64,000 nt of DNA, from positions 1,476-65,475 of the forward strand of contig JAUVLC010000001.1 in NCBI GenBank assembly GCA_030595925.1, read 5' to 3'. The DNA comes from Clostridia bacterium. Its GTDB lineage: Bacteria; CBDUZB01; JAGLHV01. Under the pieces are notes generated by a model. The model was not told the origin of the DNA, did not search any database, and was given only the letters and a program-made list of their open reading frames with translations. This document shows positions 26,125-57,821 of the stretch, one piece after another (within the stretch, counting starts at the first letter, position 1; every line of letters starts with the position of its first letter). The position numbers and the translations under genes were made by a program.

Positions 26125-26298
26125 AGCTTAGAGCTATGAGTTTAGAGCAAAGAGCTTAGAGCATGGTAGCCGCAGGCTTTCCTCCAAACAGATGGCGGAC
26201 AAGTAGCCTGCGAATTAACCAATTTTCCACTAGTAAAAAATGGCAAATAAGCATATTTTCAGATTGAGGGACTGATGATTTTTTTCAACAGTCCCTAA

Positions 26299-26499
26299 TT
26301 AAATATTAGAATTCTGATTTTTTATCCATTCCGCAACAAATCGATTCATTTTAAGTCTCGTCTCTTCATTTCTCGGTTCAAAAGAAAATTGTTCTAAAAT
26401 ATCTTTCATAATCTGTTTTTTAAACTTTTCCACTTCCGAAGGCAAAGTTAAAACAAATTCAGCATCTGACTCATCAAAAACGATATATTCTTCCATCAT
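26299..26499 (-). CDS. hypothetical small acidic protein
   Basis: 66 aa ORF with an AAGGAAAGGA RBS; no recognisable domain. Confidence 0.3.
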   Translation of the reverse strand: MMEEYIVFDESDAEFVLTLPSEVEKFKKQIMKDILEQFSFEPRNEETRLKMNRFVAEWIKNQNSNI

Positions 26500-26517
26500 T
26501 AATATCCTTTCCTTATT

Positions 26518-26951
26518 AAGCTTAGAGCTAAGGGCTTAGAGCTAAGGGCATAGAGCTAAGAGCTAAGTGCTAAGGGCTAAGAGCTAAGGGCTGAGAGCTA
26601 AGAGCATAGAGCTAAGAGCATAGAGCTAAGAGCATAGAGCTAAGAGCTTAGAGCTAAGAGCAAAGAGCTAAGAGCTAAGTGCAAAGAGCTAAGAGCTTAG
26701 AGCTAAGAGCTAAGAGCATAGAGCTAAGTGCTAAGAGCTAAGAGCAAAGAGCTAAGAGCTAAGAGCTAAGAGCATAAAAGCAAAGAGCTAAGAGCTAAGT
26801 GCAAAGAGCTAAGTGCAAAGAGCTAAGAGCGTAGAGCATAGTGCTAAGAGCTTAGAGCTTAGAGCTAAGAGCAAAGAGCTTAGAGCTAAGAGCATAGAGC
26901 GTAGAGCTAAAAGCTAAGAGCTTAGAGCTAAGTGCTAAGAGCATAGAGCTT
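26518..26951. repeat. AGAGCWW heptamer tandem array (~61 units)
   Basis: Longest AGAGCTA-type array in the window; degenerate units AGAGCTA/AGGGCTA/AGAGCAT/AGTGCAA. Confidence 0.9.
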
Positions 26952-26984
26952 AACGATTAATTAATTACAGATTAATCTGTAATT

Positions 26985-27112
26985 TGCAATCTGTAATTTT
27001 TTTATCCTGTATCCTGAATCCTGTATCTTGCATCCTATATCCTGTATCGTGAATCGTGAATCGTGTATCGTGAATCGTGTATCGTGAATCCTGTATCGTG
27101 AAATGTTATTCC
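26985..27112. repeat. ATCNTGW heptamer tandem array
   Basis: atcctgt atcctga atcctgt atcttgc ... atcgtga atcgtgt; preceded by the palindrome CAGATTAATCTG and AATCTGT units. Confidence 0.9.
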
Positions 27113-27235
27113 TGCAGACAGAATGTGTTGTTTTACAGAACTCTAAATATCTTTTCTCTTTCTATCTGTGTAATCATCTTTTTTAAATCTGTGTAATCAA
27201 GTATCTGCGAAAACTTTTGAGCAGATACTAATTAT

Positions 27236-54699: not shown

Positions 54700-54839
54700 A
54701 ATTTTGTCTCCTTAAGAGCATAGAGCTAAGAGCGTAGAGCTTAGAGCAAAATATGATTCACGATACAGGATGCACGATTCACGATAGAAACTTCAAATTA
54801 AGCGTAGGAGTGGGCTTGCCCACCCTTATTTGCTCAAAA

Positions 54840-55205
54840 TTAACGAAACAATCGCCATAGAAAGCATCCCAGCTCTCTCCCTGGAAAAATGGGTAATCCA
54901 AACACAAACATTAGAATAATTAATTGTGAAAAAATTAAAAAAGAGAGACAAATCCATATATATACCCGTTGGCACAATTTAGATTTAAACCTGAAAGTCT
55001 GCGTCAAAAAATATATCCCTATTGCAAAAAGTATAAAGGGAATAGCAATTCTAAATTTCGTATCTAATTCTAAGAGGTTAAAATCCATTTCCATCTGCGT
55101 ATATATGTTTATCCTCTCATAATAAGAATCAGCAATTACAAAAGGTATTATTATACTTAAAAAGCAAAAACCGATAATAAATTTTCTATAATTCACTTTC
55201 ATCAT
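54840..55205 (-). CDS. small polytopic membrane protein (candidate immunity protein)
   Basis: 121 aa with 3-4 predicted TM helices; overlaps the upstream gene by 4 nt; sits between the two spike genes. Confidence 0.4.
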   Translation of the reverse strand: MMKVNYRKFIIGFCFLSIIIPFVIADSYYERINIYTQMEMDFNLLELDTKFRIAIPFILFAIGIYFLTQTFRFKSKLCQRVYIWICLSFLIFSQLIILMFVFGLPIFPGRELGCFLWRLFR

Positions 55206-56026
55206 TCTGACACAAACCTTTCTATTTTACCTCTCTTAATCCCAAAAAACCCGTATTGATCGGGCACCATTCTCACCTTTAATTTCTCATTTTTTATTTT
55301 GTCTAAATTTTTTCCAGAACGTGCCTTATATTCCTTCCATTTCTTCCCCTCATTGTGTGAATATTCAAATTTCATATATGTCGTACAAGCATATACTGTA
55401 ACTTTAAATTCATTCGCAAATATCTGTGCAAAACTTTCTTCCATTACTTCATCTCTTTCTCTCCTATGTCTATCTCCAAGATTACACACAAAAAAATGTA
55501 CTGTTGCTTTTTTATCAAAATGCCGCGTTATCATGTTTTTCTTATCCTCAGGAAGTTGTGTCACATGACCAATAGTGAAGTATCTATCATGGATACAAAA
55601 ATTAAATGTTTCATCTGTACGTTCTACCCTTGGTTTTGGTAACCAAAGTACTTTCTTATCATAGATAGTATACAATTTCTCTCTTATACCTTCACCACAT
55701 TTCCCATGCCAATTAGTATTAAATTCCTTTGACCAACCATGTCCATATATATAAAGTTCTTTTATCTTTTCAAAGGACTTTTCCCTTTTTTTCAATAATA
55801 CTTCTAAAACCTGATATGTATTTTCTATTTTTTTACATTCTATTTTATAATTTGGAAATTCTTTCTTTTTTTCTATCTTTGTTGTCAACGCAGCCACATC
55901 AAAAGGGGCTGGCTTCTTACTATGGTCACTACAATGAAATATAATTATTTCTCCTTTCTTAACTACAACTTTACTCTTCTTATTTTTCTCTATTGAGTCT
56001 CCCATAAATTTCTCCCTTTGCGTCAT
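55202..56026 (-). CDS. hypothetical protein (candidate spike-associated effector)
   Basis: 274 aa with no confident domain (HCSDHS / YIYGHGWS motifs); its position between spike paralogs and upstream of the membrane protein suggests an effector/immunity pair. Confidence 0.4.
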   Translation of the reverse strand: MTQREKFMGDSIEKNKKSKVVVKKGEIIIFHCSDHSKKPAPFDVAALTTKIEKKKEFPNYKIECKKIENTYQVLEVLLKKREKSFEKIKELYIYGHGWSKEFNTNWHGKCGEGIREKLYTIYDKKVLWLPKPRVERTDETFNFCIHDRYFTIGHVTQLPEDKKNMITRHFDKKATVHFFVCNLGDRHRRERDEVMEESFAQIFANEFKVTVYACTTYMKFEYSHNEGKKWKEYKARSGKNLDKIKNEKLKVRMVPDQYGFFGIKRGKIERFVSE

Positions 56027-56105
56027 ACAAATTGTAGTTGCCTGATTTATCAGGCTAAAAAATATTAACGATAAAGCTCAATAAATTAAGCAACTACGAT
56101 AAAGT

Positions 56106-57527
56106 TTAATCAGGAAATTCTACTTCCCATTTTTTAGCAGGCGGTAAATTGCTAACCTTAGCAAAACCTTTCTCATTAAGTTGCCCTTCTACTCTTTTCC
56201 CATCCGAAGAAACCAAGACAAACTTTTCATTAGCCAAAGGATTATCTTCTTCATCAACACACTCTAATTCAATCCAATCCTTAAACTCCACTATCCCTGA
56301 TTTTGATTCTTTATCTTCTATCTTTACCTTAAAATAATATTCGGGTTTGGTATATCCTTTTTCTTTCTGTTCTTTGTCACTATCTACATCATCAATGTCT
56401 TCATGATATTCATATTTCCATTTCGCTTCTACCCTGTTTTCTTTAACATTACCTAATAAAGTAGTAATGTAGTCATCTTCTCCTTTTGTATCTTTCTCAT
56501 ATATCTTAAAAGTAACTTGTGTGCCATCAGGAAAACTTTTTGTTGAACAAGACAATGTTATCTCATCTCCGCATCGTGCCTTGCTCTTTGACCACCGGGC
56601 ACTACTAATAAATTTCGTTTCTTCCTTTTCCTCACGAGCTTCTTCCTTTTGACCTGTAACCGCCACAGCCGCAGCAGCAGTAACGGCCATTGGTGCCATA
56701 GGCGATCCACCCATACCTATCTGCACCTGTGTTCCTTTTACCTCTTGAATCCTTGCGGCAATTCTTTTTAAACCTCCACCTGATTCCATCTGCACCTGTC
56801 CACCTTTTAACTCTACATTAGCTCCACCTTGCGAGAGCATATTAACATCTGCCTTATTTTCTATTCTATTTCCTTTCACCTTTAAATTTTCATTGGAAAT
56901 AATGGTCATATCTTTTGTTGCTTTTAACTCTAATGTACCTTCAGACTGGATATTTATTGATTTTGATGCGCTGATACAAAATTCTTTGCACTCAATAGTT
57001 ACTTTTCCCTTAAGTGCTTTAATATTTATATTTCCCTCATTGGTAATAAAATTAGTCTGGTTCTCTTTTGCTTCTTTATTATTATTTATCTCTATTCTAT
57101 TATTAACAGTTTTATCAATTATTTGTATTTTTTCTTTATCTTTAGTATCATCCATAATCAATAAATGTCCACTTGCAGATTTTATATAACGCAAATTATT
57201 CTTTGCATCTTTGTTGCGATCAGATTCTTGATTTTCTTCTGTCGTCGGTGGTCTTCTTTCTTCCGTCCAGATACTCTTAATCACAAAAGGGCTATTTACA
57301 TCCCCTTGATGAAACATTACTAAAACTTTATCATAAATGCAAGGCATAAAATAAGTTCCCATACCAGAACCAGCCAAAGGAATAACTACCGGTGCCCAAT
57401 TACTCACACAATTATCTCCCCAAGCAGAAAATAGCACCTTTACTCTTGCTCCTCCTTTTTCCAGCTCCACTACCTCTCCTATTTCCACCCCAAATATTCT
57501 CTTTTTTTGACAAGGTCCGTAATCCAT
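56106..57527 (-). CDS. gp5/gpV-like baseplate spike protein with a ~190-aa C-terminal extension, copy 1
   Basis: N-terminus IFGVEIGEVVELEKGGARVKVLF...WAPVVIPLAGSGMGTYFMPCIYDKVLVMFHQGDVNSPFVIKSIW; beta-helix region; C-terminal extension ends with a beta-sandwich module shared with the PAAR and LysM proteins; start refined to MDYGPCQ (RBS GAGG). Confidence 0.75.
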   Translation of the reverse strand: MDYGPCQKKRIFGVEIGEVVELEKGGARVKVLFSAWGDNCVSNWAPVVIPLAGSGMGTYFMPCIYDKVLVMFHQGDVNSPFVIKSIWTEERRPPTTEENQESDRNKDAKNNLRYIKSASGHLLIMDDTKDKEKIQIIDKTVNNRIEINNNKEAKENQTNFITNEGNINIKALKGKVTIECKEFCISASKSINIQSEGTLELKATKDMTIISNENLKVKGNRIENKADVNMLSQGGANVELKGGQVQMESGGGLKRIAARIQEVKGTQVQIGMGGSPMAPMAVTAAAAVAVTGQKEEAREEKEETKFISSARWSKSKARCGDEITLSCSTKSFPDGTQVTFKIYEKDTKGEDDYITTLLGNVKENRVEAKWKYEYHEDIDDVDSDKEQKEKGYTKPEYYFKVKIEDKESKSGIVEFKDWIELECVDEEDNPLANEKFVLVSSDGKRVEGQLNEKGFAKVSNLPPAKKWEVEFPD

Positions 57528-57821
57528 AATTTCCTCACTGAATTTAGTAATTGAAAAATGTAAAATTATCAATTAACAATTTAAATTTTCTTGCCTTTTT
57601 TGTAATTTATAATCTGTAATTTTTCTATCCTGTATCCTGTATCGTGAAAACTATTTCTTTCTTTAAACAACAAATGTCATTTCTACATATTTAATCCTAC
57701 GCAGGCTAAAGCCTGCGGCTACCACTTCAAACCAATCTGAAATCTGTAATTTTTTATCCTGTATCTTGCATCCTGTATCGTGAATCCTGCATCCTAAAAT
57801 ATTATTCCCTCATACCTTTTT

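Follow-up and report, generated by a model that had tools for sequence, protein, structure and literature searches.

GTAG-tagged hairpin repeats, very probably REP units and REPINs, in the intergenic spacers of a Clostridia bacterium

A 64,000-nucleotide stretch of contig JAUVLC010000001.1 from a Clostridia bacterium (assembly GCA_030595925.1), which in its full length we call the window, has about 33% GC, and the spacers between its genes carry, at nine sites from 26.1 to 57.7 kb, a short GC-rich hairpin. The question raised by this locus is what these GC-rich islands are. A preliminary description had offered four answers, namely a small RNA, an element resembling the repetitive extragenic palindromic (REP) sequences, a transcription attenuator or a recombinase site. 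Only the REP-like element found support, because the unit combines a GTAG tetranucleotide with a GC hairpin, forms inverted dimers, occupies extragenic sites and, in identical sequence, flanks genes for REP-associated tyrosine transposases (RAYTs) elsewhere. The element is thus very probably a GTAG-tagged REP, present as single units and as inverted dimers with their heads pointing outwards (REP doublets forming hairpins, or REPINs).

Anatomy and placement of the units

A pattern search with the 24-mer GGTAGCCGCAGGCTTYAGCCTGCG found eight exact copies in the window, five on the plus strand and three on the minus strand, when 0.00 were expected from dinucleotide-preserving shuffles. Head and stem are unchanged in the ninth copy, at 26165, whose loop carries a 24-nt insert. 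With the inverted partner units present at two of the sites the total comes to 11 units at nine sites. These are the nine copies, in the same orientations, that the preliminary description had placed between 26165 and 57724, its coordinates being off by at most 1-2 nt. The sites of these putative REP units are as follows.

26165-26212, plus strand: unit with the 24-nt loop insert TCCTCCAAACAGATGGCGGACAAG, between a convergent TPR gene (25780-26124, plus) and a small open reading frame (ORF; 26299-26499, minus)
29598-29621, plus strand: single unit, exact copy (GGTAGC-CGCAGGC-TTCA-GCCTGCG), between the AAA ATPase and DUF1257 genes, both minus
31331-31396, no single strand: head-to-head (HH) heterodimer, a candidate REPIN, made of 31331-31354 (plus, exact copy, stem GCAGGC), an 18-nt spacer and 31373-31396 (minus, stem GCAACC)
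32732-32755, plus strand: single unit, exact copy, between the VWA and FHA genes, both minus
34346-34432, no single strand: HH heterodimer downstream of MazE/ParE, made of 34346-34369 (plus, intact, exact copy) and 34390-34432 (minus, with the 19-nt loop insert TCCTCCAGAGGCGGACAAG)
38617-38640, plus strand: single unit, exact copy; the longest TATCCTG array (38695-39127, about 61 copies) comes after it
43823-43846, minus strand: unit, exact copy, in a conserved intergenic module of about 95 nt bounded by arrays, left of an AF2212-like/PIN toxin-antitoxin pair
44897-44920, minus strand: unit, exact copy, in the second direct copy of the module, right of the AF2212-like/PIN pair and downstream of the Baseplate_J gene
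57700-57723, minus strand: unit, exact copy, in the third copy of the module, between a GPD-like hub gene and a VgrG-like gene of a contractile injection system locus

Each unit starts with a G, an unpaired GTAG and one C, followed by a 7-bp stem (CGCAGGC/GCCTGCG) around a TTYA loop, and this plan (G-GTAG-C-CGCAGGC-TTYA-GCCTGCG) is that of the tagged REPs, which are stem-loops of 20-40 bp with an unpaired GTAG at one end. Folded as single-stranded DNA, one unit reaches -8.4 kcal/mol (z = -3.6). The two long copies had been described as closing with GGTTGCGGCTACC and as carrying a second hairpin (GCAACC...GGTTGC), which is correct; the closing sequence is in fact a second unit on the other strand, GGTAGC-CGCAACC-TTTA-GGTTGCG, which shares head and loop with the first and differs from it in the stem (GCAACC/GGTTGC). 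The spacers of these head-out dimers are 18-20 nt long.

The inserts in the two interrupted loops, 24 nt at 26181-26203 and 19 nt at 34399-34416, are related through the core TCCTCC...GGCGGACAAG. They have the same plus-strand orientation, despite the mutual inversion of the units that host them, and both lie downstream of plus-strand genes; no counterpart of this insert was found in any fetched locus.

When a covariance model trained on units from elsewhere was run unfiltered over the window, the nine intact units scored 41.5-42.7 bits, the two with loop inserts scored weakly, and no further divergent copies were found. Two other sequences in the spacers combine GTAG with a hairpin, GTAGGA-GTGGG-CTTG-CCCAC and GTAGTT-GCCTGA-TTTA-TCAGGC, at 54804-54825 and 56034-56056, the second of which scores just 7 bits with this model; they may be unrelated REP types or chance occurrences.

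All nine sites are intergenic: seven separate co-directional genes and two separate convergent ones, with no site between divergent genes. This is the distribution described for REPs, which are found mostly between co-directional and convergent ORFs (PMC3733652).

The same unit in other genomes and beside RAYT genes

A scan of one genome per species with the query GGTAGCCGCAGGCNNNNGCCTGCG gave at least 118 stretches with at least 137 units. Counted by hand from the contig accession prefixes among the matches listed, these come from at least 80 different assemblies, which puts the exact 24-mer in 80 or more genomes at species level, with labels from about 17 phyla. According to the record titles the hosts are Nitrospirota, Syntrophaceae, Desulfobaccales and Caldimicrobium ('Deltaproteobacteria' groups), Ignavibacteria/Bacteroidota/Kapaibacterium, Acidobacteria, Planctomycetota (Gemmataceae, Brocadiales), Gammaproteobacteria, Aerophobetes, Omnitrophota, Verrucomicrobiae, Cloacimonadota, Patescibacteria, Armatimonadota, Chloroflexota, Firestonebacteria, Zixibacteria, Nitrospinota and Clostridia. 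Most of these genomes were assembled from metagenomes and some bins may be contaminated; a single contaminating source is nonetheless unlikely, since the GC content of the DNA flanking the unit is widely spread (33-72%).

Inverted dimers are found in these genomes as well as in the two HH heterodimers of the window. A candidate inverted partner, recognised by a GGCTAC-like head motif, lies within 160 nt of 58 of the 137 listed units, a few of them by chance, and the dimer spacers are mostly 6-30 nt long.

The partner units also allowed the covariation analysis that the preliminary description had named as the check on the hairpin. The set consisted of 29 distinct partner units from other genomes, whose stems had not been fixed by the search pattern, and compensatory covariation was present in it. 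Stem positions paired in 95.6% of cells compared with 81.7% in shuffles, five of the seven stem pairs had changed on both sides, and the covariation score was 0.39 against 0.13 in shuffled sets, with none of 500 shuffles reaching 0.39. Sliding the 3' arm by 1-3 columns lowered the pairing to 21-41%. The central stem pairs occur as the compensatory variants AGG/CCT, AAC/GTT, ACC/GGT, GGG/CCC, AAG/CTT and AAA/TTT, while the GTAG head, C7, C9, T14 and most loop positions are invariant. Since pairing is kept by compensatory changes the hairpin is, as judged from these alignments, under selection.

The link to transposase genes comes from loci in other genomes, where RAYT genes are flanked by the exact unit (on the mutually unrelated contigs L021, L121 and L124) or by a variant of it (L201). 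In L021, from Candidatus Kapaibacterium, the RAYT gene has dimers of the exact REP on both sides, with at least three tandem dimers on one of them; its product (ORF 103-573) scored 68.2 bits (E 7e-19) against the NCBIfam model NF047646, 'REP-associated tyrosine transposase', which is below the curated cut-off of 80, and the protein of a further locus, L031, scored 96.8 bits. In L121, a 164-kb contig of 61% GC, there is an exact unit 39 nt upstream and an inverted unit 58 nt downstream of the RAYT gene, and in L124 (37% GC) an exact unit stands forward at 968 and inverted at 1521-1544 around it. The Bacteroidota locus L201 (protein P0122) has the compensatory variant GTAGCCGCGGGC-TTTAT-GCCCGCG on both sides of its RAYT gene, and L122 has a related hairpin, GTAGT-CCCCGGC-TTTA, at its RAYT locus.

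The RAYT gene of L124 (1010-1515) is apparently frameshifted and a third REP unit (1109-1131) lies inside the coding region, which suggests that the REP element may have inserted into its own transposase gene.

The association extends to the wider family. Among the 80 loci returned by a metagenome scan with the RAYT alignment, a GTAG hairpin (loops of 3-8 nt allowed) lies within 300 nt of the gene in 68, and the density of such hairpins is 4.25 per kb near the RAYT gene compared with 0.31 per kb further off. The sequence of the adjacent repeat differs by group (GTAG-CGGCGGTC-TAT and GTAGC-CGTCGCCC-TGT are examples). The family alignment conserves the HUH histidines, the catalytic Tyr and the NPVR motif, and its profile matches the Escherichia coli TnpA-REP (PDB 4ER8) with an E value of 7e-17, compared with about 6e-4 for the IS200-type TnpA. 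The proteins closest to that of L021 group in a sub-clade marked by CFMPDHxH, WQKDFFDH and NPVRxGL motifs, and its members share 32-44% identity where compared (52% by tblastn for L124 and L021), and the three divergent RAYTs of L021, L121 and L124 keep an identical REP. An indexed search for homologues of the L021 RAYT returned two proteins only.

The closest known elements are the GTAG-tagged REPs surveyed by Di Nocera, De Gregorio & Rocco 2013 (PMC3733652), especially GTAG-1 and GTAG-2 of Pseudomonas. Those have an unpaired GTAG at one end, unpaired base(s) after it, a GC stem of 6-9 bp and a short loop; complementary variants of the stem define sub-families, the units occur as singletons and as HH or tail-to-tail dimers, heterodimers included, with spacers of 1-100 nt, and RAYT genes flanked by the same repeats are called 'REPtrons' (PMC3733652). 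The present units resemble them in the plan of tag, stem and loop, in their stem sub-families, in occurring both singly and as dimers, in their placement relative to genes and in the flanked RAYTs. They differ in that this one REP is spread over about 17 labelled phyla, compared with eight phyla for all the tagged REPs of the survey together, and in that the host is here a bacterium of 33% GC whose units are embedded among heptamer arrays. The present consensus did not turn up in the text of PMC3733652 or in its supplements (Figure 1 was unreadable), and an exact-string search of the literature for GTAGCCGCAGGC, in which figures were likewise unreadable, returned one unrelated DNAzyme paper.

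Three other systems bear comparison. The E. coli REPs, with their bacterial interspersed mosaic elements (BIMEs) and TnpA-REP (4ER8, Messing et al. 2012, PMC3479197), share the RAYT profile match, the HUH/Tyr motifs and the GTAG at the 5' foot; their stems are, however, longer, imperfect and of different sequence, and the RAYTs found here are only distantly similar to TnpA-REP and form a clade known here from sequence alone. The REPINs of Pseudomonas fluorescens SBW25 (Bertels & Rainey 2011, PMC3116915) are likewise inverted REP pairs with a short spacer that can form one long hairpin; there a single-copy RAYT accompanies them, singlets are regarded as dimers that have decayed, and the REPINs are unlike the dimers of the window in that the latter are heterodimers. 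The subterminal hairpins of IS200/IS605 insertion sequences also combine a single-stranded DNA hairpin and an adjacent guide tetranucleotide with an HUH/Y1 transposase, whereas the units of the window bound no transposase-carrying element and the RAYT profile matches TnpA-REP far better.

By analogy with this family, and with the work on E. coli TnpA-REP in particular, the units could have spread as follows. Where DNA is transiently single-stranded each unit, GGTAGCCGCAGGCTTTAGCCTGCG, would fold into a 7-bp GC hairpin with the unpaired GTAG at its 5' foot. A single-copy HUH/Y1 RAYT encoded elsewhere in the genome would then act in trans, binding the hairpin and the tag, cutting the single-stranded DNA and transferring strands; TnpA-REP requires the 5' GTAG both to bind the hairpin and to cleave single-stranded DNA, and it has strand-transfer activity (PMC3479197). 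Units would spread in this way into intergenic DNA, probably as dimers, and single units would be decayed dimers or halves of them.

Several results weigh against such mobilisation. Neither tblastn, with a first probe and then with real RAYTs as queries, nor a profile search found a RAYT gene in the window, and for this reason we only infer that a cognate RAYT is still encoded in this genome and that it placed the GGTAGCCGCAGGC units. Among the 118 listed REP-bearing loci only two (L021 and L031) contain a RAYT, a weak statistic and one that is expected for a single-copy gene. Neither empty-site polymorphism nor target duplication was found. Finally, some copies may have spread by duplication or recombination of a whole module and not by RAYT action, since subsets of the copies share longer flanks: the three minus-strand copies have in common about 95 nt of unique flanking module, or about 190 nt when the arrays are included.

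RNA-level and other alternatives

The alternative that survives best holds that the units work mainly at the RNA level, as transcribed hairpins that serve as intrinsic terminators, as attenuators or as stabilisers of mRNA 3' ends between the genes of operons. Lying between co-directional or convergent genes the units would be transcribed, five of them were flagged as terminator-like by a loose consensus scan, and a role of this kind, which is compatible with a REP origin, has been proposed for REPs in other bacteria (PMC3733652). Four of the five flagged hits are, however, on the plus strand while the flanking genes are on the minus strand, and on these strand grounds the terminator reading is mostly disfavoured. 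T-rich tails are in any case common in DNA of 33% GC, the units at co-directional sites are split into four antisense and three sense to transcription, and a terminator role would leave both the invariant GTAG head and the linkage to RAYTs unexplained.

Covariation does not decide the matter. It had been put forward as the result that would discriminate an RNA function, and as such it fails, being just as much to be expected of a single-stranded DNA hairpin that a transposase recognises, so that the pattern fits a DNA hairpin and an RNA hairpin equally well. G-U pairs are rare (2 of 203 cells) and give no sign of strand-specific selection on an RNA. We regard a mainly RNA-level element as improbable. 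This does not concern secondary effects: the dimer at 34346-34432, 3' of the ParE gene, has a T-rich stretch after it and could act as a terminator, and transcribed hairpins in the injection-system operon may also protect mRNA 3' ends or cause partial termination.

Far less probable is a structured small RNA, or a riboswitch-like three-way junction, of 70-90 nt. The preliminary description had seen such a junction in both long copies, and this holds for one of them: a three-way junction is the fold of the dimer at 34344-34434 (-19.7 kcal/mol, z = -3.9), which together with the covariation of the stem is what speaks for an RNA of this kind. For the dimer at 31329-31399, on the other hand, the best fold is a single long, imperfect hairpin (-19.3 kcal/mol, z = -5.9). 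An inverted pair of REP units thus has two competing folds, of which the junction is one, and the junction was not selected as such, because its outer helix is merely the pairing of the two conserved GTAG heads. Moreover a lone hairpin is all there is at seven of the nine sites, units are separated by anything from 6 to more than 100 nt of unconserved spacer, and the orientation of the units relative to transcription and to the flanking genes is mixed. The comparison with Rfam gave no family either: over the window only a tRNA-Arg passed the gathering score, and the units were unmatched even at E<=1. A scan for tRNA and tmRNA genes in the window likewise found the tRNA-Arg at 1209-1281 and nothing else.

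The dimers could also be taken for miniature inverted-repeat transposable elements (MITEs) that descend from an ordinary DDE insertion sequence and have GGTAGCCGC as their terminal inverted repeats, since they are short, intergenic and have inverted ends. We consider this very unlikely: no target-site duplication is visible and no matching DDE element was found, single units outnumber dimers, each arm is itself a hairpin, and the HUH/Y1 RAYT is the one transposase that the units were seen to flank.

Least credible of all is a site for a site-specific recombinase, either an integron attC-like cassette boundary or a dif/Xer-like site, for although small cassettes, two toxin-antitoxin pairs among them, are bounded by repeat modules, and an XerC/D-type integrase gene is present at 5003-5890, that gene belongs to a block of housekeeping genes near recA, 20 kb away, and the units elsewhere flank RAYT genes and not integrases. 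An integron attC was rejected because the units, which occur in both orientations, have no RYYYAAC/GTTRRRY cores and because no integron-type integrase was found among the repeat-region ORFs scanned with Pfam (not every ORF was scanned).

Genomic setting and significance of the family

The window falls into two parts. From 1 to 25 kb the minus strand is densely occupied by housekeeping genes (alaS, recA, rimO, ftsK, pnp, ribF, infB and nusA), and this block contains neither heptamer arrays nor REP units. The RecA encoded here is 100% identical to an NCBI/Logan protein, and its relatives at 79-96% identity include P0124-P0129 (86-96%). From 25 kb onward, where the genes are again almost all on the minus strand, there are first small genes (TPR, pentapeptide, DUF1257, DUF2997, AAA ATPase, VWA, FHA and the MazE/ParE pair) and then, at 39133-63785, a complete-looking locus for an extracellular contractile injection system, with Tail_P2_I, a LysM protein, PAAR, Baseplate_J, gp25, CIS_tube, two VgrG-like proteins, a GPD hub and two eCIS_core proteins. 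Proteins sorted by the type IX secretion system (T9SS) and a PorV-like gene are interleaved with the injection system genes, and the AAA ATPase gene (29708-31309) is listed alongside this locus. The T9SS sorting domains and PorV hint, tentatively, at an affinity with the FCB group.

The spacers of this second part are filled with heptamer arrays, all nine REP sites fall within them, and they have a common layout. Read along the plus strand, a gene start is followed by (AGAGCww)n, AATCTGTAAT, (TATCnTG)n and the stop of the next gene, and the REP unit, if present, lies in mid-spacer. This order is fixed in almost all spacers between minus-strand genes from 25390 to 63920, and the fifth base of the TATCnTG heptamer varies freely. 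Examples are given in the following line.

25390-25697, 26524-26951, 36790-36943, 38695-39130 and 62650-62828: array spacers, heptamer arrays of up to about 61 copies

It had been stated that the units always sit between the two types of heptamer array. This is true of some of them, but several lie between TATCnTG-type arrays in opposite orientation, and at 26165 only one side of the unit is flanked by an array. The nearest precedent found for heptamer arrays upstream of start codons is that of the TAACTGA repeats of Beggiatoaceae, Cyanobacteria and Bacteroidetes (PMC4679880).

Period 7 also prevails by far among the short-period arrays of REP-bearing loci from many phyla. The listed REP-bearing loci contain 50 of them in 825 kb, compared with five of period 6 and 12 of period 8, and the viral-labelled loci contain 18 period-7 arrays in 115 kb. 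Nine of the 137 listed units lie within 100 nt of a period-7 array when 1.9 would be expected at random, a difference that is not decisive as both features are intergenic. One viral-labelled contig of 65% GC (L210) has ATCCTGC/AATCCTG arrays at 12844-12874 and 13724-13755 that are about 90% identical to those of the window.

Two copies of the REP-bearing module are direct repeats that bracket the AF2212-like/PIN (VapC-type) pair, which is encoded on the plus strand at 44011-44747, and from its sequence the whole region (43640-45090) looks to have arisen by insertion or recombination within the injection-system operon.

Several further repeats and signals were seen in this part of the window. 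A second hairpin repeat, CACCCTCACCTTAWTCCTCTCCCCTCAAGGGAGAGGA, is present in three copies (44764-44800, 49870-49906 and 59261-59297) when none are expected, and recurs with 93-95% identity in an unrelated viral-labelled contig of 43% GC (L203, at about 138-180). The spacers at 34560-34740 and 49470-49720 are similar in inverted orientation, including GATTACACAGATT and AAGGCTTACTGAAAAAT...ATTTTTCAGTAAGCCTT, and a further small mobile element, or a gene for an RNA, may lie behind this similarity. Next to a consensus promoter on the minus strand (34569-34541) stands a perfect 32-nt palindrome (34505-34536), and a perfect sigma-70 consensus promoter (33666-33694; TTGACA, 17 nt, TG-TATAAT) stands just upstream of the MazE/ParE pair (33706-34275). 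Two genes contain internal repeats: that of the LysM-domain protein (577 aa) has a 393-nt unit twice, with 89% identity (region 41092-41875), and that of an NHL-repeat T9SS-sorted protein (660 aa) has units of 183-195 nt about three times (region 52663-53596).

As a REP the element is ordinary and of a well known kind, and this identity accounts for the GC-rich islands in the AT-rich spacers with no need for a new RNA or recombination system. What goes beyond the routine is its identity across phyla and its co-occurrence with heptamer arrays. REPIN-RAYT systems are, according to 10.1101/2022.05.22.493013, mostly vertical within lineages; the present REP differs from them in being letter-identical across phyla while its RAYTs share only 36-52% identity. 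The unit is present on 12 viral-labelled contigs. No RAYT of this family was found in the viral contigs of IMG/VR and no plasmid matched the model dimer, so that no vector for spread across phyla was identified.

Either this RAYT-REPIN system crosses phyla far more than the vertical picture allows, or its recognition site is under a very old and tight constraint, and there may in addition be a functional or mechanistic link between the REP units and the heptamer arrays; we put this forward as a speculative and rather doubtful extension. In the window the REP units, AATCTGTAAT and the two array types make up a repeated modular linker between the genes of the injection-system operon, and this could reflect such a link beyond a shared tolerance of intergenic positions.

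In practical terms the units and heptamer arrays are a marker of sites where short-read assemblies break, the genes of the window being found only on Logan contigs of 2-13 kb. The organism itself occurs in the samples SRR32546279 and SRR18936873. The family ties one 24-nt REP to one RAYT sub-clade, in carriers that are mostly uncultured (Nitrospirota, Planctomycetota, Omnitrophota and Aerophobetes, for example), and offers a ready pair of substrate and enzyme for biochemistry. It also lends itself to testing whether REPIN-RAYT systems are symbionts of strictly vertical descent or are able to cross phyla.

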